Below are positions 1 through 40,420 of a DNA stretch of 41,075 bases, one piece after another (positions within the stretch are counted from its first letter, which is position 1; every line of letters begins with the position of its first letter). The notes under the pieces were generated by a model. The model did not search any database. It was not told the DNA's origin and worked only from the letters and a program-made list of their open reading frames with translations. This DNA comes from a virus. Its lineage: Duplodnaviria; Heunggongvirae; Uroviricota; Caudoviricetes. The translations under genes were made by a program, and so were the position numbers. The stretch is from IMG/VR virus record IMGVR_UViG_2917393062_000004, one strand, 5' to 3'.

Positions 1-1254
1 ATGCTGGAACAAATGGGCATTGCCGCGAAGCAAGCCTCGTATAAATTAGCGCAACTCTCCAGCCGCGAAAAAAATCGTGTGCTGGAGAAGATTGCCGATG
101 CACTGGAAGCACAAAGCGAAAGCATTCTCAACGCTAACGCGCAGGATGTTGCTGACGCGCGTGCTAATGGCCTTAGCGAAGCGATGCTTGACCGTCTGGC
201 ACTGACGCCCGCACGGCTGAAAGGCATTGCCGATGATGTGCGCCAGGTGTGTAACCTCGCCGATCCGGTGGGGCAGGTGATTGATGGCGGCGTGCTGGAC
301 AGCGGCCTGCGTCTGGAGCGTCGTCGCGTGCCGCTGGGGGTGATTGGCGTGATTTATGAAGCGCGCCCGAACGTGACGGTTGATGTTGCTTCACTGTGCC
401 TGAAAACCGGTAACGCAGTGATTCTACGTGGCGGTAAAGAAACCTGTCGCACTAACGCGGCAACGGTGGCGGTGATTCAGGACGCCCTGAAATCCTGTGG
501 CTTACCGGCGGGTGCCGTGCAGGCGATTGATAATCCGGATCGCGCACTGGTCAGTGAAATGCTGCGTATGGATAAATACATCGACATGCTAATCCCGCGC
601 GGTGGCGCTGGCCTGCACAAGCTGTGCCGCGAACAGTCGACGATTCCGGTGATCACTGGTGGCATTGGCGTCTGCCATATTTACGTTGATGAAAGTGCAG
701 AGATCGCTGAAGCATTGAAAGTGATCGTCAACGCGAAAACCCAGCGTCCGAGCACATGTAATACGGTAGAAACGTTGCTGGTGAATAAAAGCATCGCTGA
801 AAGCTTCCTGCCCGAATTAAGCAAACAAATGGCGGAAAGCGGCGTGACATTACACGCAGATGCTGCCGCGCTGGCGCAGTTGCAGGCAGGTCCCGCGAAG
901 GTGGTGGCAGTTAAAGCCGAAGAGTATGACGATGAATTTCTGTCATTAGATTTGAACGTCAAAATCGTCAGCGATCTTGACGATGCCATCGCCCATATTC
1001 GTGAACACGGCACACAACACTCCGATGCGATCCTGACCCGCGATATGCGCAACGCCCAGCGTTTTGTCAACGAAGTGGATTCGTCCGCTGTTTACGTTAA
1101 CGCCTCTACGCGTTTTACCGACGGCGGCCAGTTTGGTCTGGGGGCGGAAGTCGCGGTAAGCACACAAAAACTTCACGCGCGTGGCCCAATGGGGCTGGAA
1201 GCACTGACCACTTACAAGTGGATCGGCATTGGTGATTACACCATTCGTGCGTAA
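1..1254 (+). CDS. proA: Gamma-glutamyl phosphate reductase (glutamate-5-semialdehyde dehydrogenase)
   Basis: 417-aa ORF starting at window position 1; recognised as enterobacterial ProA by full-length sequence and aldehyde dehydrogenase-type motifs. Chromosomal flank. Confidence 0.95.
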
Positions 1255-1368: not shown

Positions 1369-1444
1369 GCCGATATAGCTCAGTTGGTAGAGCAGCGCAT
1401 TCGTAATGCGAAGGTCGTAGGTTCGACTCCTATTATCGGCACCA
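1369..1444 (+). tRNA. thrW: tRNA-Thr (anticodon CGU)
   Basis: 76-nt cloverleaf GCCGATATAGCTCAGTTGGTAGAGCAGCGCATTCGTAATGCG...GGTTCGACTCCTATTATCGGCACCA with encoded CCA; anticodon loop T-CGT-AA; sits directly after proA as in E. coli. Integrase gene starts 15 nt downstream. Confidence 0.9.
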
Positions 1445-1458
1445 TTAAAATCAATAAG

Positions 1459-2622
1459 TTACACATCATTAGTACCTTCCTTATTTTTTGACTGGGACAA
1501 ATTTGGGACCGATGGGTTCAGGATCGAGTCTATTTGCCGTGCGTGTTCGGTAAGGTGATTAGGTGCAAGGTGAGCATATCGACGAACCATTTCGATAGAC
1601 TCCCAGCCTCCCATTTCCTGTAACACTGACAATGGGACTCCGGCTTGAACCAGCCAACTTGCCCAGGTGTGTCTCAAGTCGTGAAATCTGAAATCATCAA
1701 TACCAGCCCGTCTCAGCGCCGCTTTCCAGGCTGTGTTTGCGTCATACCGCATCTTCCTTACTGTTGGCGCTTTCGTTCCGTCTGGTTTGGTACAGCTTTC
1801 CTTGTACACAAATACCCAACGGTGATGATTCCCGATTTGTTTTTTCAATACGCGACATGCAGTATCATTCAGCGCAACGCCAATTGCGCGGTTTGATTTA
1901 CTCTCTTCCGGGTTTATCCATGCCACCCGGCGCTGCATATCTATTTGTTGCCATTCAAGGTTGATGATGTTCGAGCGTCTTAAGCCTGTTGCCAGTGCAA
2001 ATTCAACAACAGACTTTAATGGCTCCGGACATTCATCAATCAGCCTTTGTGCTTCATGGGGCTCCAGCCAGCGGATCCGTTTATTCTTTGGTTGAGGCAC
2101 TTTAATAATTGGTGCCTTATCCAGCATTTTCCATTCACGCTCTGCGGCTCTTAGTAGGGCCTTTATAAATGAAAGATGCGTAGCCTTCGTTGCAACGGAC
2201 GCTGGTTTTGGCGTGTATTCTGGAACAGGTTTCCCTTTTTTTCTGCATGCTTCTGCCCTGAGTTTCCAGTTTTCCTCATGACGCCGGTTCGTCATTTTCT
2301 GCATTGCTGAATAAATTTTTGATTCAGTAATGTCTCTTAGTTGCATTCCTGCGAAATGTTGAAGCCAGAATCCGATCCGGCTTTTGTCATCGTCCAGTGA
2401 TTTTTTATGTGCTTTCTCTTCAAGCCACCTGACACACGCTTCCTCGAACGTTATATCAGGTATTTCACCAAGTTTGCTGACCCGCCATGCTTCAGCCTTT
2501 AGCTTGTCATGGAGTTCTGTCGCCTGCCTTTTGTCCTTTGTTCCAAGAGACTGTTTAAATCTTTTACCGTTCGGCAATGTGAAACTGGCGTACCATATTT
2601 CACCTCTGCGGAAGAGTGACAT
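1459..2622 (-). CDS. Tyrosine-type site-specific integrase
   Basis: 387-aa ORF with C-terminal catalytic-domain signature ([41 protein letters not shown]); adjacent to tRNA 3' end. Confidence 0.9.
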
Positions 2623-13516: not shown

Positions 13517-13535
13517 GACGGCCATATTGGCCGTC
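13517..13535. terminator. Perfect 8-bp GC-rich hairpin between convergent Q and cargo operon (possible bidirectional terminator/stabiliser)
   Basis: GACGGCCA-TAT-TGGCCGTC flanked by AT-rich sequence; overlaps stop codon of the minus-strand gene; no clean U-tract. Confidence 0.4.
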
Positions 13536-14721
13536 AGCTAAATAAATATGTAATAGCATAAGGCGTAAGTAAAAAGTAGAATCTAAATGTAAGATATAAG
13601 CCACATAAAACTATAATTCCTAATGAGGCAAAAACAACTTTCTGAACAAGCAATCTTGTGGTTAAACTATCAAATGTATCCTTTATATCTTCGTAAATAG
13701 CCTTGAAGTTATATTCTGCTTGTTGTTTTTTATGATTTAACTCATCATTTATTGCTGTTAAAGTTTGCCATTGATTAAATAGAACAAATAGAATCATAAT
13801 AGTGAAGAACAATGCACCCAACACTACAGCTGTGTTTATTAATGCTTGACTATCCCAACCATTAGCCTGCTTCATTTGAGTCGCAACGATAATTGTTGCG
13901 ACGGGGATACCTAATATCTGATTTTGTATGTCACTGAATACTTTATGTATTTTCCCCATCTCTTCTATTTTGGCTACTCGTAACTGATCCAGTATTTTCT
14001 CGTAAGAAAAACCAGAAACGAATACTTTGTATCCTTTTTGATAACTTTCATAAAGTTGTCCTAAATCCCTTAACATGAAGGAAAAAGAGGTTTCTTTAGT
14101 TTTAGATTCACATGATGATTTTATACTACTTGCTAAAATAGTAAGTTTTTGATCTTTATGCGTATCTTCTGCAAAGTTTGCGATCAAATTATGAATCAGA
14201 TCTCCATTAACATTCATAAGATCATCGCTAGAATAATTTACTGGAATTTTTAGTACGTTGGATTCGACGAATACCAATTCAAAATTTGTTTCATCTAAAT
14301 AAGCAGAACAATCTTTGAATAAAGTAATTAAGCTCAAAACATCTCTGTACTTGGATATAATAGCAGGCGACTTTTTATCCCTGTTGTGATAATTAAGTTC
14401 GATTATAAAGAAGTTACTGGCTTCCTTTATCCTATTTTTAGGATTTTTTAAATACTCATTAAAAGAGAAATGTAGCTGCCCCAATCGTAATTTGGGGGGG
14501 GTTATATGTAAGGTTATAGTTTGGCCTAACTTAATGTTGCCAGATTCAAGGGTGATGCCAAAATCATGGGGATTCTCTGTGATATCGTTGATGATGTCAC
14601 AGAGCTCCTCGTTTGAAAGAATGAGTGATGCTTCAGATAGGGTACCTGCAAATGTAGCGGCCTTGTAAATAGTCACTAAGTCTTTGAAGGTTCTCTGATT
14701 GTTACTGCTCATCCTCTTCAC
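13534..14721 (-). CDS. Cargo protein B: 395-aa protein with large N-terminal soluble domain and 2-3 C-terminal transmembrane helices; no recognised domain
   Basis: Hydrophobic segments ALINTAVVLGALFFTIMILFVLF and VVFASLGIIVLCGLYLTFRFYFLL near C-terminus; GTG/ATG start overlaps the stop of the upstream gene (translational coupling); GC content about 35-38 percent versus about 50 percent in flanks. Confidence 0.75.
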   Translation of the reverse strand: MKRMSSNNQRTFKDLVTIYKAATFAGTLSEASLILSNEELCDIINDITENPHDFGITLESGNIKLGQTITLHITPPKLRLGQLHFSFNEYLKNPKNRIKEASNFFIIELNYHNRDKKSPAIISKYRDVLSLITLFKDCSAYLDETNFELVFVESNVLKIPVNYSSDDLMNVNGDLIHNLIANFAEDTHKDQKLTILASSIKSSCESKTKETSFSFMLRDLGQLYESYQKGYKVFVSGFSYEKILDQLRVAKIEEMGKIHKVFSDIQNQILGIPVATIIVATQMKQANGWDSQALINTAVVLGALFFTIMILFVLFNQWQTLTAINDELNHKKQQAEYNFKAIYEDIKDTFDSLTTRLLVQKVVFASLGIIVLCGLYLTFRFYFLLTPYAITYLFS

Positions 14722-15736
14722 CTAATTCTGATAAGATCTCTGATCTTAGCGTATCCGGAATCTCGGTAAGTATCAATTTATCGTTTTCTGAATCATAAAG
14801 AACGCTGCCATCATGCAAGGCCGCACGCTCGAATTTCAGAGACCAATGTTTGGACTTTCCTTTGAAACTAACAAGCCCACGTATAACGTTGCCATCAGGC
14901 ACGAACCCATCAGAGAACTCCAGATCGTCATTGGTTAACTTTTCAACTAACAACTCAGGAGCAGTTGGCCATATCTCGTTTGCAAAAATTTGAGTGTCGA
15001 AAGTTTCACCAGAACGATTTAAATTTTTTAATTTTTCATGAGCCTTATTTAGGAACTCTTCACGTGCCTCTGGTTCAAAACCTCTTTCAGTAGCAAATTC
15101 TAAAAGTGCATTCCGTAATTTTGTTGTTTCTTGTTTGGCAATTAGAATATCGTTGCAACCTAAAAACTTTTTGAAATAACCTGCTACTGAATTTTGCCCC
15201 TTTAGAAAGCTAATATATCTCTCTTTGCCATTCTGGCGCCCAGTTAAGTCAATTCGTCCCGCTACTCGAAGTTTAGCAATGTCTAGATATTCACTTTCTT
15301 GAATTTCAAAATCGTGGACTGAAGAGCCAACTGCTGATGTTAGGATTGCAACCATCAAATAATGATTTCCATTTACCTCATTATGGGCAATTATTACATA
15401 ACCACCAGTAGACATTGATTCATCATCGGCTCTGGCTTTTAAATGATTGATCATTCGGATACTAGTATCATAAAAACTATGTGTTTTATTTACGAAATAA
15501 TCATCAACGATATTACCCATAGGGTAACTATCGCGGTCATCTTCAAATTTCCCATATCCTTTACCTGCTCTCCCAGAGTACCTTTCAGTAAGTGCGTTAG
15601 AGAGGTCTTTTGATGCTTGCTGAACAGGTTTTTCTGAAGGACAAGGAATAATGGTGGCTAACCCCTGTTGTTCCTTGTTCATAATGTGAACAATAAACTT
15701 ATGAGTGATATTAGTGGGGGTCGCTGATGCAGTCAT
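14702..15736 (-). CDS. Cargo protein A: YejK/NdpA-family nucleoid-associated protein homolog (344 aa)
   Basis: Shares recalled YejK motifs in order (GGYVII, YLMVAILTS, YLDI, GRIDLT, RYISFLKG, YFKKFLG, C-terminal LILTEIPDTLR); AAGGA RBS; low GC. Confidence 0.7.
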   Translation of the reverse strand: MTASATPTNITHKFIVHIMNKEQQGLATIIPCPSEKPVQQASKDLSNALTERYSGRAGKGYGKFEDDRDSYPMGNIVDDYFVNKTHSFYDTSIRMINHLKARADDESMSTGGYVIIAHNEVNGNHYLMVAILTSAVGSSVHDFEIQESEYLDIAKLRVAGRIDLTGRQNGKERYISFLKGQNSVAGYFKKFLGCNDILIAKQETTKLRNALLEFATERGFEPEAREEFLNKAHEKLKNLNRSGETFDTQIFANEIWPTAPELLVEKLTNDDLEFSDGFVPDGNVIRGLVSFKGKSKHWSLKFERAALHDGSVLYDSENDKLILTEIPDTLRSEILSELGEEDEQ

Positions 15737-15852
15737 AACAACATCCTTTTAATGGTTTTGAACAATTGGTGTTGATAATACTTCAAAAAATACTAATGCG
15801 TACGCAAAAAATACGGTACTCTGTTAAGAGTGGTTACTTCGCCACACAGCTT

Positions 15853-15880
15853 AAACCCGCCGTCGAGCGGGTTTTGTCGT
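15853..15880 (+). terminator. Intrinsic terminator upstream of holin (tR'-like); candidate late promoter PR' lies about 60-90 nt upstream
   Basis: Hairpin CCCGC-CGTCGA-GCGGG followed by TTTTG; position between Q and S matches the lambda PR'-tR' arrangement; promoter hexamers not confidently assigned. Confidence 0.55.
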
Positions 15881-16026
15881 TTCTGGGCTTTGGTATTCGT
15901 TGGGCTTGGTCTATCTAGCTCTTATCCATTGGCTCGGCTTCTTTTACGTTTCCGCTTCTGATTTGCGGTTCGTGGTACTCCCTCAATTTGCACCTCTTGT
16001 ATCGGCGAGGTGAGAGATAACTACAA

Positions 16027-16353
16027 ATGCCTCATAACCCAAATACTTGGCTGGAGTTGGTCCAGAGCTGGTGGCGTGGAGACACACCGCTGGGCGCAGT
16101 GATTATGTCGATTGTTATGGCTGGTTTGCGCATTGCCTATTTTGGCGGTGGTGGTGGCTGGAAGCGAAAAACACTCGAAATTCTACTCTGTGGCGCTCTG
16201 ACGCTGACTTTTGCATCCGCTCTTGAGTATGTCGGATGGCCTAAATCGCTTTCTGTTGCCATTGGTGGTGGGGTGGGGCTGATCGGTGTCGATGCTATTC
16301 GTGGGGCTGCAATGAGAGTAATCGGTAATAAGTTTGGTGGCTCTAAGGAGTAA
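16027..16353 (+). CDS. S: Holin (lambda S-like, class I)
   Basis: 108-aa ORF with multiple TM segments and charged C-terminus, immediately upstream of lambda R-like endolysin. Confidence 0.8.
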   Translation: MPHNPNTWLELVQSWWRGDTPLGAVIMSIVMAGLRIAYFGGGGGWKRKTLEILLCGALTLTFASALEYVGWPKSLSVAIGGGVGLIGVDAIRGAAMRVIGNKFGGSKE

Positions 16354-16356
16354 TTT

Positions 16357-16833
16357 ATGCAGGTACTAAATTCCCAGCGTAAAGCTTTCCTCGATATGGT
16401 GGCATGGTCAGAAGGAACGGATAACGGGCGACAACCGACACGTAACCACGGTTATGATGTTATTGTTGGTGGCGAACTGTTCACTGATTACTCCGATCAC
16501 CCTCGCAAACTTGTCACGCTAAACCCAAAACTCAAATCAACAGCCGCCGGACGTTACCAGCTTCTTTCCCGTTGGTGGGATGCCTACCGTAAGCAGCTTG
16601 GCCTGAAAGACTTCTCTCCAAAAAGCCAGGACGCTGTGGCATTGCAGCAGATTAAGGAGCGTGGCGCTTTACCGATGATTGATCGCGGTGATATTCGTCA
16701 GGCTATCGACCGTTGCAGCAATATCTGGGCTTCACTGCCGGGCGCTGGTTATGGCCAGTTCGAGCATAAGGCTGACAGCCTGATTGCAAAATTCAAAGAG
16801 GCTGGCGGAACGGTCAGAGAGATTAAGGTATGA
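16357..16833 (+). CDS. R: Endolysin, lytic transglycosylase (near-identical to lambda R)
   Basis: 158-aa product [79 protein letters not shown]... matches lambda R over most of its length as recalled. Confidence 0.95.
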
Positions 16834-17267
16834 GCAGAGTCACCGCGATTATCTCCGCTCTGATTATCTGCATCATCGTCTGCCTGTCATGGGCTGTTAA
16901 TCATTACCGTGATAACGCCATCGCCTACAAAGAGCAGCGCGATAAAGCCACATCCATCATCGCTGACATGCAGAAGCGTCAACGTGATGTAGCAGAACTC
17001 GACGCCAGATATACAAAGGAGCTTGCTGATGCTAACGCGACTATCGAAAGTCTCCGTGCTGATGTTTCTGCTGGGCGTAAGCGCCTGCAAGTCGCCGCCA
17101 CCTGTGCAAAGTCAACGACCGGAGCCAGCAGCATGGGCGATGGAGAAAGCCCAGGACTTACAGCAGATGCTGAACTCAATTATTACCGTCTCCGAAGTGG
17201 AATCGACAGGATAACCGCGCAGGTTAACTACCTGCAGGAATACATCAGGACGCAATGCCTTCGATGA
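16830..17267 (+). CDS. Rz: i-spanin Rz
   Basis: N-terminal TM anchor, coiled-coil periplasmic domain; follows R; embedded Rz1 in +1 frame. Confidence 0.85.
17023..17214 (+). CDS. Rz1: o-spanin Rz1 (lipoprotein, embedded in Rz; true start may be an internal Met)
   Basis: Lipobox LLGVSAC followed by Pro-rich segment; entirely within Rz in a different frame. Confidence 0.7.
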
Positions 17268-17517
17268 TAGCGATAATTTTACTCATCATCCTTCACATCT
17301 GGCTCTGTAGACAGGGTGGTGCTTACTTCTGGAGCGAATCCAGATTAAACATCTCATTGCTGATGCTTGATATTGAGCATCTGGCGCGCGGTAAGGGCTG
17401 TGTTGAGATAAGTGCCAGTTCATTACAAAGCTATATCTAATGGAACCTGAAATAATTTGTCATTGTCATGACAAGAAAATTCATTAATGATGAGCTCTCA
17501 TTATACGGGAGGTAGAT

Positions 17518-31520: not shown

Positions 31521-31548
31521 GCAGGATTCCCCTCACATGTATTGCTGG

Positions 31549-31576
31549 TTGTAAGTCATAAATAGAGTGATAGAAT
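31549..31576 (+). promoter_or_regulatory. Candidate sigma70 promoter with extended -10 for the tail-module moron
   Basis: -35 TTGTAA, 16-bp spacer, TGaTAGAAT extended -10 about 35 nt before the ATG. Confidence 0.4.
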
Positions 31577-31611
31577 TAATGCACATTTAGAAAAATGTTA
31601 ATAGGCGAAAA

Positions 31612-32142
31612 ATGAAAGGCTATATCACAGCAAGTGTAATTCTTGGAGCAGCGGCTATTTTTTCATCTCTCATAATCTCTGGCAACATCTCCTTTAAAGA
31701 TGAACATATTATTCAGTTATCTGGAGGAGCCATAAAACTTGGTGATGTTTATAAAGAAAATAAATTGATAAGTGCAAAGATTATTTTTCCAGATAATCAG
31801 GGTGAACAGATTCTTGTTGTCGACGGCAATCCTGAAAACTTTAAGGAGGATTTTCAGGAGAAATTAAATAAAGTAATAAAAACTTTAAATGCGTCAAAGA
31901 AAAAAGATGAAGAGAAAGTTAGCCTGGATAATTTAAGTGTTATTGAAGAGTCTAAACTAGAGCTCGTTTCTGCGGTGCGTTACTCTGCTCAGTATGTTCC
32001 TATGTTTACTCTGACGCTGGACAAAAAAGAAATTACCATGCCTAAAAATACGGTAATATTTCCATTTGCCAGCGATGAAACAGCTAAGTATTTAAATGAA
32101 CAACAGCAAAAGTATAAAGATTCGTTGTTTCTGACTCGCTAA
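31612..32142 (+). CDS. AT-rich moron: exported/membrane-anchored hypothetical protein (176 aa)
   Basis: N-terminal signal/TM segment (ITASVILGAAAIFSSLIISG); GC about 30 percent; own promoter and strong terminator; between tape measure and baseplate genes. Confidence 0.65.
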   Translation: MKGYITASVILGAAAIFSSLIISGNISFKDEHIIQLSGGAIKLGDVYKENKLISAKIIFPDNQGEQILVVDGNPENFKEDFQEKLNKVIKTLNASKKKDEEKVSLDNLSVIEESKLELVSAVRYSAQYVPMFTLTLDKKEITMPKNTVIFPFASDETAKYLNEQQQKYKDSLFLTR

Positions 32143-32159
32143 TTAATAAAATTCATTAC

Positions 32160-32190
32160 AAGGCCACCTTCTAATAGGTGGCTTTTTTAT
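32160..32190 (+). terminator. Intrinsic terminator of the moron
   Basis: AAGGCCACC-TTCTAATA-GGTGGCTT followed by TTTTTT. Confidence 0.8.
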
Positions 32191-35156: not shown

Positions 35157-35582
35157 TGGAACTGTGGCTGACGGTGAACGGTAAACGCACCTGCGCCAGC
35201 GCACCGCTGGATCCGCTGACCCGCGCCGTGGTGATTTCCCTGTTTACCTGGCGGCGGGCGGAGCCTGATGACAATGCCGACGTCCCGATGGGATGGTGGG
35301 GGGATACCTGGCCTGCGGTGACAGAATGACCGTTACGGCTCCCGACTGTGGCTGCTTCAGCGCAGCAAACTGACCAATCAACTGGTGCAGACGGTAAGGG
35401 GGTATATCCGCGAATGCCTGCAATGGATGATTGATGACGGCGTGGTGTCCCGTATTGATCTGGATATCCGCCGCACCGGGATTAATGAACTGGGTAACAG
35501 TATCACTCTCTGGCGTCGTGACGGACCGGTAATGATTTCTTTTGATTATCTGTGGAGTGCGATAACGCATGGCGGACAGTGA
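35156..35582 (+). pseudogene. Baseplate gp46-like gene split by a frameshift (N-part 35156-35329, C-part in another frame to 35582)
   Basis: N-part carries SLFTWRRAE...GWWGD, C-part carries GSRLWLL...[10 protein letters not shown]...FDYLWSA; frames can only be joined within about 35322-35326. Confidence 0.6.
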
Positions 35583-36627
35583 ATTTCAGCGCCCGACGCT
35601 GGCAGAAAATATCAGTATGCTCCGTAACGATTTATTCGCCAGGCTGGACGTCAGCGACACGCTCCGGCGCATGGATGAAGACGTGCGGGCAAAGGTGTAT
35701 GCGGCGGCGCTGCATACGGTTTACGGGTACATCGATTATCTGGCAATGAACATGCTGCCTGACCTGTGCGATGAGTCCTGGCTGGCGCGACATGCTGCGA
35801 TGAAACGGTGTCCGCGCAAGGGGGCCACGGCTGCCAGCGGGTATATGCGCTGGGAAGGTGTCAGCGATGGCCTGAAGGTGACCGCCGGAAGTGTTATTCA
35901 GCGCGATGACCTGGTTCAGTACACGGCAACTGCCGATGCAACCAGCACCGGTGGTGTCCTGCGCGTGCCGATCGCCTGCTCAAGTGCAGGCGCGGTCGGT
36001 AACGCTGACGACGGTACGTCATTAATCCTGGTCACGCCGGTTAATGGTCTGCCGTCTTCCGGCGAGGCAGATACCCTGACAGGTGGATTTGATACTGAAG
36101 AGCTGGAAACGTGGCGCGCCCGCGTCATTGAGCGGTATTACTGGACGCCTCAGGGCGGGGCTGACGGGGACTATGTCGTCTGGGCTAAAGAAGTGCCCGG
36201 CATTACCCGCGCATGGACATACCGACACTGGATGGGAACGGGGACTGTCGGTGTGATGATTGCCAGCAGTGACCTGATTAACCCCATTCCGGAAGAATCA
36301 ACGGAAACGGCGGCAAGACAACATATCGAGCCACTGGCCCCGGTGGCAGGCTCTGATTTGTATGTATTCAGGCCGGTGGCGCACAAAGTGGATTTTCATA
36401 TCCGCGTGACGCCGGACACACCGGAAATACGGGCTGCCATCACCGCGGAGTTGCGTTCATTCCTGCTGCGTGATGGTTATCCGCAGGGAGAGCTTAAGGT
36501 ATCGCGTATCAGTGAAGCGATTTCCGGTGCGAACGGGGAATACAGCCATCAGTTGCTTGCTCCGGCGGACAATATCTCCATTGCAAAAAATGAACTGGCG
36601 GTACTGGGGACGATTTCATGGACGTGA
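35569..36627 (+). CDS. Baseplate J-like protein (Mu gp47-like)
   Basis: 352-aa ORF; conserved order. Confidence 0.75.
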
Positions 36628-37208
36628 CAAACGATGATTACATCCGCCTGTTATCGGCACTGTTGCCGCCCGGTCCGGCGTGGTCAGCCAGCGATCCGGC
36701 GATTGCCGGTGCGGCACCGTCATTAACCCGTGTTCATCAGCGTGCGGATGCCCTGATGCGGGAGCTGGATCCGCGCACCACCACTGAACTGATAAACCGC
36801 TGGGAGCGTCTGTGCGGTCTGCCGGATGAATGTATTCCGGCGGGAACGCAGACCCTTCGCCAGCGTCAGCAACGGCTGGATGCGAAGGTTAACCTGGCGG
36901 GCGGCATCAACGAGGATTTTTATCTTGCACAGCTTGCTGCCCTGGGCAGACCAGATGCCACCATCACGCGATACGACAAAAGCACGTTCACCTGCTCATC
37001 GGCCTGTACTGACGCGGTGAATGCGCCGGAATGGCGGTATTACTGGCAGGTCAACATGCCAACCACCACCAACACCAACACCACCTGGATGACATGTGGC
37101 GATCCCTGTGATTCCGCACTGCGTATCTGGGGTGACACCGTTGTCGAGTGTGTGCTTAACAAACTCTGCCCGTCGCATACCTACGTAATTTTTAAATATC
37201 CGGAGTAA
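36618..37208 (+). CDS. Tail protein gp48-like (DUF2313 / YmfQ-like)
   Basis: 196-aa ORF directly preceding the tail fibre gene. Confidence 0.65.
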
Positions 37209-37211
37209 TCC

Positions 37212-37955
37212 ATGCATCGTATAGACACGAAAACCGCGCAGAAGGATAAGTTCGGCGCGGGTAAGAACGGTTTTACCCGTGGTAACCCCCAGACTGGCAC
37301 GCCTGCCACCGATCTGGATGATGACTACTTTGATATGTTGCAGGAAGAACTCTGCAGCGTGGTGGAGGCATCCGGTGCCAGCCTGGAGAAGGCGCGGCAC
37401 GACCAGTTGCTTACCGCGCTTCGTGCGCTGCTGTTAAGCCGCAAGAATCCGTTTGGCGATATCAAATCGGATGGCACGGTGAAAACGGCTCTCGAAAACC
37501 TTGGTTTGGGAGAAGCGGCAAAACGGAATGTGGGCAACGGGGAAAACCAAATCCCTGATATGTCTTTCTGGACGGTTACTGGTGGCAATGGAAATTTTGT
37601 GATTCGTCAACCTGACGGGCTAATCACTCAGATGGTTACTGTAAGTATAAGCGGTCCAGTGGCGATGAATGGAATGACTGATAATGCTTATGCCATTACA
37701 GGTTCTAATAAGTCTTATATTGCCACAGCCACATTGCCCTTTGTATTTCCTAATAAGGTGCTGGGCGTTATCCCTCTGGTATCAACAACAACCTATGGTG
37801 GTGTATCCAGTAATATTACAGGTTCATACGCGACGGCGGTTTGTTCTTTTGCCGCTGTCCGGGGGAATAATACGATTGTATTCAAAGTCGACAAACCACT
37901 GAATGCAGCCTTTCCTTCAGATACCAGCGTCTCAGCGTTAATCATTGGACGGTAA
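37212..37955 (+). CDS. Tail fibre protein: constant N-terminal part plus currently expressed variable C-terminal part
   Basis: N-terminus MHRID...[21 protein letters not shown] typical of Mu S/P2 H-type fibres; crossover site inside the gene at about 37490-37515. Confidence 0.8.
37490..37515. repeat. Left crossover site of invertible segment (gix/pix/hix-like)
   Basis: ctctcgaaaaccttggtttgggagaa; 21/26 identical to the reverse complement of the right site, including a perfect GGTTTGGGAGAA core. Confidence 0.7.
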
Positions 37956-37957
37956 TA

Positions 37958-38401
37958 ATGAACTCAGTATTCTTTTCACCCGGAAGTAAAAGTTTTTATC
38001 TACAAGAATTGTTTCCAGAATATGAGGATGCGGGAACGCTTCCAGATGATGTTATTGAAATTACCCGAGAAACATATGAGCAATTTCTTGGGCTGCATCC
38101 AGAAGGGAAAGAAATTGGCGCTGACAGTTCAGGACGGCCAATATGGATTAATTCCCCACCGCCTTCAAAAGAGGATGAGGTGTTGATGGCTGAAATGAAA
38201 AAAATATCTTTGGTTTCAGAAGCCAATACCTACATCAACACCCATCAGTGGCCTGGCAAAGCTGCTATTGGTCGTCTGAAAGGTAACGAGCTGGAGCAAT
38301 ATAATTTATGGCTGGATTATCTAGACGCACTGGAACTGGTTGATCCCTCCAGTGCTCCAGATATTGAATGGCCTACGCCTCCGGCAGTTCAGGCCAGATG
38401 A
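37958..38401 (+). CDS. Tail fibre assembly protein (Tfa, U-like)
   Basis: 147-aa ORF after the fibre gene; convergent 3' overlap with alternative Tfa. Confidence 0.75.
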   Translation: MNSVFFSPGSKSFYLQELFPEYEDAGTLPDDVIEITRETYEQFLGLHPEGKEIGADSSGRPIWINSPPPSKEDEVLMAEMKKISLVSEANTYINTHQWPGKAAIGRLKGNELEQYNLWLDYLDALELVDPSSAPDIEWPTPPAVQAR

Positions 38402-38975
38402 CATTCGGCGCGGTGCTGGTATCTGTTGCCGTCACCGCGTCAATGTAATCCAGCACAGCGTTAAGCCGGGTTGTTTCTGCCTGCGTCAGTTTCCGTCCGG
38501 CCTGTAATTTCAGCTGAATCAGACTAATGGAAGCCATTGCAGCATCAATCAGTGACTGGCGCTGTGCTTCTGCCGCGTCTACTGCGGCGCTATGCTGTGC
38601 CTCAGTATCGGTCACCCATTTCTCACCATCCCATTTATCGTATGGCGTTAATGGGGCGATAGTGGTTGTATTTTCAGGGTAATCACCCGGAGCTGTGATT
38701 TCTTTTGATTCTCCTGTTTCAGTGCTATAGACCGTTTCACCGCGATGGTCTGGCACATATTCCCATGAGTTAAAATCTGCAGAACGGCAAATTGCATAAC
38801 CAGCTTTATATGAGCCAGGAGCATCTAAACAGGAACTTGCCGGGATACCGACGCCGACAGCGATATATTCATTTGATGTGGAAATATATTCCCGTGTTTC
38901 GCCATCATAGTTATAGACGGTAATATTCCCCGCCTTCGTGGCAATAAGCTCGATATTTAATACGGCTTTATTCAT
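38373..38975 (-). CDS. Alternative tail fibre assembly protein (U'-like)
   Basis: 200-aa ORF inside the invertible segment; C-terminal region similar to the plus-strand Tfa (TAPNVIWPELPEA vs SAPDIEWPTPPAV). Confidence 0.7.
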   Translation of the reverse strand: MNKAVLNIELIATKAGNITVYNYDGETREYISTSNEYIAVGVGIPASSCLDAPGSYKAGYAICRSADFNSWEYVPDHRGETVYSTETGESKEITAPGDYPENTTTIAPLTPYDKWDGEKWVTDTEAQHSAAVDAAEAQRQSLIDAAMASISLIQLKLQAGRKLTQAETTRLNAVLDYIDAVTATDTSTAPNVIWPELPEA

Positions 38976-39421
38976 CAGGCTGCCCTCACGATATAGTTAA
39001 ATGCAATATTCCGTGGGCGAGTATCGGCAGGAACGACATACATTTCACCAATTGCCCGCTCATTAGAGTTGTTCAGCAATAGGCTTGAGCCATTACTGTC
39101 ATGACCCGTAATTAAGATATCATTGGACAAAATAAGTGAGCCTGTACCTGCAGGAATACCATAAATTCCCATATCAAATTTAATATAACCAACACGCGCG
39201 CTCTGTGCAGACATAACGCTGCGACCAGTATCTACTGAACGACCGTCATCCCAGCCACGAATAAACTCACCGCGTAAATCAGGCAATTTATTTGTCGGGT
39301 AAGCCTTTGCCAGTTCTGGGTATTCTTCAGCGGAAAAAGCCGCACCATTGCATTTCAGCCAGCCTGTTGGCGGAGTGGCTGAAGGCCACGGAACAGGGAC
39401 ACCAACAGGTAATGCAGAGCC
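38975..39421 (-). CDS. Alternative tail fibre variable C-terminal domain (S'v-like), expressed only after inversion
   Basis: Tail-collar-like motif (LPVGVPVPWPSATPPTGWLKCNGAAF); no independent N-terminus; reads through the right crossover site; shares GLGE junction with the constant part. Confidence 0.65.
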   Translation of the reverse strand, partial: GSALPVGVPVPWPSATPPTGWLKCNGAAFSAEEYPELAKAYPTNKLPDLRGEFIRGWDDGRSVDTGRSVMSAQSARVGYIKFDMGIYGIPAGTGSLILSNDILITGHDSNGSSLLLNNSNERAIGEMYVVPADTRPRNIAFNYIVRAA

Positions 39422-39447
39422 TTCTCCCAAACCAACGTTTATGAAAA
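39422..39447. repeat. Right crossover site of invertible segment
   Basis: ttctcccaaaccaacgtttatgaaaa; resembles recalled hixL (TTCTTGAAAACCAAGGTTTTTGATAA); inverted copy of the left site. Confidence 0.7.
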
Positions 39448-39501
39448 TGCAGAAATAACGAGCAAATGGCATCATTCCTGCTTTTGTCAGGGAGATCCAC
39501 C

Positions 39502-40056
39502 ATGCTTATTGGCTATGTACGCGTATCAACAAATGACCAGAACACCGATCTACAACGTAATGCGTTGAACTGTGTAGGATGTGAACTGATTTTTGAAGAC
39601 AAGATAAGCGGTACGAAGTCCGAAAGGCCCGGACTGAAAAAACTGCTCAGGACATTATCGGCAGGTGACACTCTGGTTGTCTGGAAGCTGGACAGGTTGG
39701 GGCGCAGTATGCGGCATCTTGTTACGCTGATAGAAGAGTTGCGCCAGCGTGGCGTGAATTTCCGAAGCCTGACTGACAGTATTGATACCAGTACCCCAAT
39801 GGGCCGTTTCTTTTTTCATGTCATGGGAGCCCTGGCTGAAATGGAACGAGAACTGATTGTTGAACGAACAAAAGCTGGACTGGAAGCTGCTCGCGCACAG
39901 GGACGAATTGGTGGACGTCGTCCCAAACTTACACCAGAACAATGGGCGCAGGCCGGGCGATTAATTGCATCAGGCGTTCCTCGCCAGAAGGTGGCGATCA
40001 TCTATGATGTTGGTGTATCGACACTGTATAAGATGTTTCCGGTCGGAGATAAATGA
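39502..40056 (+). CDS. Serine DNA invertase (Pin/Gin/Hin/Cin family)
   Basis: N-terminal MLIGYVRVSTNDQNTDLQ with catalytic Ser; resolvase domain and C-terminal HTH; next to inverted crossover sites. Confidence 0.92.
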   Translation: MLIGYVRVSTNDQNTDLQRNALNCVGCELIFEDKISGTKSERPGLKKLLRTLSAGDTLVVWKLDRLGRSMRHLVTLIEELRQRGVNFRSLTDSIDTSTPMGRFFFHVMGALAEMERELIVERTKAGLEAARAQGRIGGRRPKLTPEQWAQAGRLIASGVPRQKVAIIYDVGVSTLYKMFPVGDK

Positions 40057-40395
40057 AACCGCAGGCTCGTCGTATGCAAGAACGTGCTGCGGCTGGCTGG
40101 TGAACTTCCGATAGTGCGAGTATTGAATGATTTACAGCCGTTATTGATTTTACATATTTTTTGTATGAAAGGATTAGCGCTTCCTCCCACCGATCCTCCA
40201 TGACTTTACGCCACTGTCTCTAGGACTGCTATGTGCCAGTAGCAGACTAGTGATCGCTAGGCTTGAATTCATTCGTATTAGCGCCAAGTGGATAATAAAT
40301 GGTGAAATCCATTAGTCATTACTTTATCATAAGCTCGTTATATAAAGATTTTAGTATTCGTAATTCTTTTCTTTGTTTAAGATGATGAAAATTAT

Positions 40396-40420
40396 ATGAT
40401 ATGATATGATATGATATGAT
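40396..40420. repeat. Pentanucleotide tandem repeat (ATGAT)x5 in the upstream region of the terminal cargo gene
   Basis: Five perfect tandem units about 28 nt before the ATG at 40449; units contain -10-like TATGAT hexamers. Confidence 0.85.

Follow-up and report, generated by a model that had tools for sequence, protein, structure and literature searches.

Our results revealed that the last genes of the tail operon in this prophage very probably form a DNA inversion switch of the Pin type (the Hin/Gin/Cin/Pin family), orthologous, as judged from sequence comparison, to the P segment of the e14 element of Escherichia coli K-12 and housed in a complete-looking prophage. The orthology is indicated by the position after a ymfQ-like gene, by the gene order, and by crossover sites identical to those of e14. 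Specifically, within the window, by which we mean the whole stretch of 41,075 nucleotides that was analyzed, two inverted 26-bp sites bracket a 1933-bp segment that carries two alternative tail-fibre C-termini and two assembly chaperone genes, and an intact gene for a serine invertase lies just outside.

The switch belongs to an e14/SfV-like prophage that is integrated beside tRNA-Thr and proA (Table 1). Beyond the integrase, the prophage comprises lambdoid early genes, an HK97-type head, and a Mu-like contractile tail, and it is colinear with e14/SfV-like prophages that occupy the same site in E. coli GF3-3 and 2023CK-01509. With its full set of morphogenesis genes, the prophage is apparently complete, and it is apparently able to produce particles, as judged from the complete-looking gene set alone. 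On the 3' side of pin, a cargo gene of the window encodes a 208-aa protein of unknown function, whereas K-12 carries mcrA after its pin gene; PADLOC returned no match for the cargo genes nearby.

Table 1. Coordinates of the inversion switch and of its prophage setting within the window.
Feature	Position	Strand	Remarks
proA	1-1254		window opens within proA; E. coli-type chromosome
tRNA-Thr(CGT)	1369-1444		follows proA
Tyrosine integrase	1459-2622	-	
Baseplate J/gp47-like gene	35569-36627		near the end of the tail operon
YmfQ/Mu gp48-like baseplate gene	36618-37208		last before the fibre gene; switch directly downstream
Tail-fibre gene, expressed	37212-37955	+	247 aa
Constant fibre N-terminus (Sc), aa 1-97	37212-37501	+	outside the segment, directly after the YmfQ/Mu gp48-like gene
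Left 26-bp crossover site	37489-37514		CTCTCGAAAACC TT GGTTTGGGAGAA; core dinucleotide 37501-37502
Variable fibre C-terminus in expressed position (Sv), ~150 aa	37502-37955	+	phrog_12714
Tail-fibre assembly chaperone paired with expressed Sv, 147 aa	37958-38401	+	Caudo_TAP
TfaE-type chaperone of the silent cassette, 200 aa	38373-38975	-	Pfam Caudo_TAP, E 1.5e-32
Silent fibre C-terminus (Sv', StfE-type, tail-collar domain)	38975-39434	-	Pfam Collar, E 1e-15
Right 26-bp crossover site	39422-39447		TTCTCCCAAACC AA CGTTTATGAAAA; core dinucleotide 39434-39435
Pin-type serine DNA invertase, 184 aa, catalytic Ser9	39502-40056	+	starts 55 bp outside the right site
Candidate Fis-dependent recombinational enhancer	39524-39586	+	putative; inside invertase codons 8-29

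A sequence-only reading of this DNA had proposed inverted 26-bp sites resembling hix and gix at the two ends of the segment. Both parts of that proposal are borne out, and the extent that it gave (37490 to 39447) agrees with the outer edges of the sites to within 1 nt. The two sites are identical at 21 of 26 positions: the inner 14 nt, made up of the inner half-sites (12 of 12 identical) and the AA/TT core, match perfectly, and the outer half-sites differ. This is the design of an invertase switch, in which imperfect 12-bp half-sites flank an identical asymmetric 2-bp core, and it is the asymmetric AA/TT core that sets the orientation. A repeat finder recovered arms at 37496-37515 and 39421-39440 that are complementary at 19 of 20 positions, and a 19-nt site pattern, with up to three mismatches allowed, occurred nowhere in the 41-kb window but at these two places, which lie on opposite strands (expectation from shuffled sequence, 0.01). 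Since no further crossover sites, such as those of Min- or shufflon-type multiple inversion, appeared within three mismatches in the 41-kb window, the locus is a simple two-state switch. Both sites are identical over all 26 bp to those of the e14 P segment in E. coli K-12. They share 17 of 26 positions with gixR of phage Mu and 20 of 26 with what we take to be the sequence of hixL, which presumably has the AA core as well.

The same reading placed two alternative fibre C-termini and two opposed assembly genes between the sites, with GLGE encoded at both junctions and with variable domains unrelated to each other, a picture that is upheld throughout. GLGE is encoded across both sites, the right junction reading ...NVGLGEGSAL. 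In the expressed fibre, residues 1-102 match tail-fibre PHROGs (phrog_1396, E 6e-59), and the constant N-terminus is almost the same as that encoded by the 5' part of ycfK/stfP in K-12. Residues 102-247, the variable part now in expressed position, match phrog_12714, a family of unknown function (E 4e-47), along with a weak match to Pfam Gp53-like_C that falls below the curated cut-off. When this variable domain was compared by tblastn with 50,697 phage records, no close match was found (the best had ~37% identity over 69% of the query); the matches were distant only, to P2-like phages at 34-40% identity, so a receptor assignment is not possible. Among complete E. coli genomes, at least 44 carry the domain. 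The two variable domains share no significant similarity (best BLASTP E 0.19), and their two chaperones are alike over the C-terminal 80 aa only, at 31% identity. Of these chaperones, the 147-aa protein matches Pfam Caudo_TAP (E 3.6e-27) and phrog_188 (E 1e-53), and the 200-aa protein is identical to K-12 TfaE at 186 of 200 residues; their genes are convergent and overlap by 29 nt. The silent StfE-type C-terminus has no start codon of its own within the segment and is promoterless. A consensus scan for promoters and terminators, uninformative in itself, found no terminator within the segment, and neither a gap nor a terminator separates the ymfQ-like gene from the fibre gene; we infer that the fibre cassette is transcribed from the late tail operon.

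As to the recombinase, the sequence-only reading had placed a Pin/Gin-family invertase just outside the segment, an identification that domain, structure, and sequence comparisons now substantiate. The protein matches Pfam Resolvase (E 2.6e-52) and HTH_7 (E 1.6e-13), as well as the Gin structures 3uj3 and 4m6f (E 1.6e-92), and its identity is 94.6% with K-12 PinE, an active enzyme from which it differs by 10 substitutions, and 75.5% with Mu Gin. Its ORF is intact and has the makeup of a small serine recombinase, namely an N-terminal catalytic domain, Ser9, and a C-terminal HTH; the VRVST motif that contains Ser9 aligns to Gin, where structure 3uj3 has Ala at that position. For the residues that follow, the invertase was placed on Hin numbering through the Gin alignment and through what we take to be the Hin sequence. 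Enhancer-dependent invertases differ from resolvases at Hin Q151, R154, and L155, in helix 1 of the DNA-binding domain, and at basic residues at Hin 47, 48, and 51 (PMC3798978). In the Gin alignment, the invertase of the window keeps the Q, R, and L in ..EQWAQAGRLI.. and has K46, K47, and R50 in helix B (..PGLKKLLRTL..).

The 5' end of the invertase gene also holds a candidate enhancer. Its basis is a pair of GNNYRNNWNNYRNNC-like sites that score 6/7 and 7/7 and have their centres at 39531 and 39579. The two are 48 bp apart and lie ~97 bp from the right core, a distance in keeping with the ~100-bp geometry described for Hin (PMC3798978). A Fis-like pair occurs at the homologous positions in K-12 pinE and in Mu gin as well, and the stretch is conserved with Mu. 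The GNNYRNNWNNYRNNC consensus is degenerate: the window contains 846 sites that reach at least 6/7, among which 20 pairs show the 48-bp spacing, so that the pair is not significant by itself and the argument for an enhancer is solely one of position and of conservation with Mu and K-12.

Taken together, these components suggest the following mechanism. Pin dimers would bind both 26-bp sites, with activation probably supplied by a Fis-bound enhancer that lies within the 5' end of pin; cutting at the AA/TT core and strand exchange would then invert the 1933 bp between the cores. In the orientation found, the 97-aa N-terminus is joined at GLGE to a C-terminus of 150 aa and uncharacterized specificity, and the 147-aa chaperone comes next; in the flipped orientation the same N-terminus would carry the StfE-type tail-collar C-terminus, followed by the TfaE chaperone. 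The fusion is in frame in both states, and each variable domain is then followed by its own chaperone gene. A population of lysogens would thereby release particles with either of two fibre tips, and the two cassettes may recognize two different receptors, with an effect on host range.

Both predicted states can be recognized in sequence. When the flip was modelled by exchanging the segment at the core dinucleotides, the fibre ORF stayed open and gave a 249-aa product, composed of the constant N-terminus and the collar-type C-terminus, with tail-fibre PHROG matches along its whole length (phrog_1858, E 3e-71). The earlier expectation that inversion would join the N-terminus in frame to the alternative C-terminus is thus borne out in silico, and also in nature: two E. 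coli genomes, GF3-3 and YZ3E2001, carry the flipped form (99.7% identity, with 100% of a 3.1-kb query covered), and the 249-aa tail protein annotated in these genomes, GF3-3 included, agrees with the modelled product at 100% identity. In the alignment to GF3-3, positions 37496-39440 alone change strand; 2 of their 1945 nt are mismatched (99.9% identity). A 20-bp repeat is common to both ends, which places the breakpoints within 37496-37515 and 39421-39440, and in the junction alignment the switch point falls inside TTGGTTTGGGAGAAG.

A census of both forms of the 3.1-kb query in 5,426 complete E. coli genomes, with matches counted at a coverage of at least 80%, extended this result. The orientation found here was present in 14 genomes (best match, 97% identity) and the flipped orientation in 30. 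For the allele itself, inversion of the segment is documented by the two genomes that carry the flipped form. Further, two isolates from one study, 23CRST027 and 23CRST031, whose locus is homologous and 94% identical to the window, are 99.98% identical to each other over 33 kb and differ by inversion of the 1.9-kb segment only, which indicates switching on very short time scales. These observations parallel those made for the e14 segment in K-12, in which both orientations coexist in clonal cultures, as determined by PCR and sequencing (PMC4272514), the inverted fraction amounts to 26-30% in the wild type and 49% when PinE is overproduced, and pinE and pinE pinQ mutants are locked in a single orientation (PMC12529663).

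One potential alternative concerns what the switch is for. Inversion could serve mainly to defend the lysogen, by placing the other variable domain behind an outward-facing start and thereby producing a small chimera that blocks phage adsorption. There is a precedent for this in e14, where inversion by PinQ, and less so by PinE, generates StfE2, a product whose start lies outside the segment and which inhibits adsorption of T2 (PMC12529663). The corresponding leftward start (ATG at 39475/39472, MMPFARYFCIFINVGLGE) is conserved in the window, and after the flip it opens an ORF of 164 aa; the GF3-3 annotation has a hypothetical protein for this ORF, 163 aa long and starting at the second ATG. 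However, the prophage looks complete, and the classical virion function is therefore available to it; further, the variable domain of the chimera is unrelated to K-12 StfP, and a consensus scan found no leftward promoter near 39476-39520. We thus regard defence as an unlikely main function, and it is compatible with the inversion mechanism in any event, differing in the selected function only. A more elaborate proposal combines such a host-serving role as a second function, with the leftward ORF from 39475 capturing a fibre domain to yield a free receptor-masking protein against superinfection, with recognition by the 150-aa domain of a receptor so far unassigned to any fibre family; we consider this combination distinctly improbable.

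The remaining alternatives question whether the invertase turns the segment over at all. The layout could be a frozen relic, inherited with a switch that idles in the source strain, for example because pin is silent or the prophage is defective, which would leave the segment stuck in its present orientation. A single assembled sequence shows one orientation, no sigma-70-like promoter for pin turned up in 39448-39501 in the consensus scan, and e14-type prophages are often defective, as in K-12, all of which would fit. Nevertheless, the invertase retains Ser9 and the enhancer-dependent residues (PMC3798978) unchanged, near-identical alleles occur in both orientations, near-clonal isolates included, and other Pin paralogues can act in trans (PMC12529663), which makes a relic very unlikely. 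Given that the sites are identical to active ones, that the invertase is intact, and that both orientations occur in nature, the Pin-type switch is probably active, as far as can be read from sequence. Finally, it is extremely improbable that the orientation differences stem from RecA-dependent recombination at short repeats or from assembly error, since, even though the breakpoints are resolvable only to the common 20 bp and do not by themselves identify the enzyme, a repeat of 14-20 bp is far under the length for efficient RecA recombination, the K-12 invertase mutants are locked (PMC12529663), and both orientations recur in many independent complete genomes with breakpoints always in the repeat, on which grounds an assembly artefact was rejected.

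The inversion switch set out above is already known. It has been described since 1983-85 as the P segment, which the sequence-only reading did not name, nor did it name e14 or PinE, and the same allele in the opposite orientation is already present in public genomes. Only one element lacks a described counterpart and is mildly new, namely the receptor-binding domain of 150 aa now in expressed position, for which deposited phages offer no close match; this uncharacterized cassette is a candidate for receptor testing. What the locus offers otherwise is a textbook phase-variable tail-fibre switch in a prophage, whose lysates may hold two particle types, together with natural evidence, through the genome comparison, that the allele flips over short evolutionary times. 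In annotations, the minus-strand ORF of 166 aa should be read as a silent cassette, neither a pseudogene nor an independent gene. The arrangement is also relevant to the engineering of host range or of tailocins.

Several known systems invite comparison. Shigella flexneri phage SfIV, other SfV-type serotype-converting phages, and E. coli thrW prophages are of the same phage type as the prophage in the window. SfIV has the same tail-fibre constant region and chaperones (93.9% identity over parts of the query), but its match stops at query position 1888 of 3101, ~500 bases before the invertase gene, and no invertase match was found there. Hin with its hix sites, which governs flagellar phase variation in Salmonella, and Cin with the C segment of phage P1 belong to the same recombinase subfamily and use the same 26-bp site design; unlike Hin, which inverts a promoter, the switch in the window inverts coding cassettes.

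The G segment of phage Mu and its invertase Gin (S/U and S'/U') share more of the architecture. As in the window, the constant N-terminus lies outside the segment, two opposed cassettes, each of a variable domain plus a chaperone, lie inside it, the invertase gene lies immediately beyond it and is oriented like the tail operon, and gp47/gp48-like baseplate genes precede the fibre gene. The 5' coding stretch in which the candidate enhancer lies is conserved between gin and the window. The two systems differ in the core dinucleotide, which is AA in the window and GA in Mu (the gix sequence having been confirmed from the Mu record), in the length of the constant fibre part (97 versus ~170 aa), and in the length of the segment (1.9 versus 3 kb), and they have no variable domains in common.

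The closest counterpart is the e14 P segment with PinE (Plasterk & van de Putte 1985; Mehta et al. 2004; both as cited in PMC4272514). The gene order is the same, ymfQ, ycfK/stfP, tfaP, tfaE (reverse), stfE (reverse), and pinE, and RefSeq uses the names ymfQ, tfaE, and pinE for the homologous genes of relatives. The differences lie in the surroundings and in the variable parts. First, e14 is a 15-kb cryptic remnant, whereas the prophage in the window looks complete. Second, the segment measures 1933 bp in the window and 1797 bp in e14 (PMC12529663). Third, neither the expressed variable domain of the window nor the 5' half of its chaperone gene is related to K-12 StfP and TfaP, such that the full-length fibre shares 134 identical residues with StfP, mostly in the constant part, and the StfE-type domain has had its central part (~75 residues in the window) replaced relative to K-12. 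Against these stand the features held in common: the two 26-bp sites agree completely, the constant part of the fibre is almost identical, and even the 29-nt convergent overlap of the chaperone genes is shared between K-12 and the window.

Inversion of the homologous segment was seen between two E. coli isolates obtained from human faeces in a single study in Ecuador. Along a 33-kb stretch that includes the corresponding end of the prophage, the genomes of 23CRST027 and 23CRST031 are 99.98% identical, and within this region a 1.9-kb segment (positions 15491-17411 of the 23CRST027 locus, L007) lies in the opposite orientation in the 23CRST031 locus, L009. At the centre of the segment in the window, the convergent chaperone genes share a 29-nt overlap (38373-38401), exactly as do tfaP and tfaE in K-12. 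The inverted repeat found here (83% complementary) mirrors a conserved C-terminal motif (LWLDYLDAL / LNAVLDYIDAV) that the two genes encode on opposite strands. This conserved chaperone-gene centre, with variable cassettes on either side, is likely a site of cassette exchange.

Variation was also evident within the silent StfE-type fibre domain. Its collar part and last ~15 residues are conserved, whereas the mid-portion (39020-39243) finds no match in K-12 stfE or in the closest relative of the same orientation, where the blastn alignment has a gap; this stretch has the appearance of a hypervariable insert inside the receptor-binding tip. Further, the reading frame of the silent cassette is lengthened by a start codon lying outside the invertible segment (39472-39475, minus strand; MMPFARYFCIFINVGLGE...), with AGGA immediately 5' of the first ATG of this putative outward ORF. 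Its counterpart in K-12 is the frame of stfE / "StfE2", which is treated in PMC12529663.

Beyond the invertible segment, comparisons with related E. coli prophages revealed differences in gene content. The 176-aa ORF of the tail region is placed between the tape-measure gene and a Mu gpN-like DNA circularisation gene. Strain 2023CK-01509 has nothing equivalent in its prophage, and the alignment to it leaves a gap at window positions 31521-32177. Similarly, the prophage of GF3-3, colinear elsewhere, lacks the minus-strand cassette, which encodes a 344-aa homologue of the NA37 nucleoid-associated protein (PF04245, E 8e-69) and, in an overlapping gene, a 395-aa protein of unknown function (phrog_5023); PADLOC gave no match for this cassette.

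Features of the window discussed here, with their positions
Feature	Coordinates	Strand	Location	Database match
Two-gene cassette	13534-15736	minus	between late-regulation region and lysis genes	
176-aa ORF, unknown function	31612-32142		tail region	phrog_5485, E 4e-108
Inverted repeat, 18 nt	38311-38328 / 38437-38454		chaperone genes	
(TATGA)x5 pentanucleotide repeat	40395-40419		30 nt 5' of cargo ORF start codon (40449)	
Cargo ORF, 208 aa	40449-41075		directly 3' of pin	

The cargo ORF that follows the invertase gene pin stands out by its low GC content (36.5%, vs 50% for the window), and its product, which has a hydrophobic N-terminus, found no match in Pfam, PHROG or PADLOC. Among 5,426 E. 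coli genomes, 30 carry this ORF. A promoter scan of the window placed the pentanucleotide repeat between -35-like TTAAGA (40377) and -10-like TATGAT hexamers. The number of TATGA units differs among prophages with otherwise identical flanks (five in the window, four in YZ3E2001 and two in GF3-3), and match lengths imply two units in 27 of the 28 remaining genomes with the cargo gene; such differences could reflect slipped-strand changes of promoter spacing. Seen across genomes, the slot after pin itself resembles a hotspot for variable cargo or defence genes: 23CRST027 carries there a LEM-3-like GIY-YIG nuclease gene and then a retron Ec67 gene, and in the e14 element of K-12 the position is occupied by mcrA.
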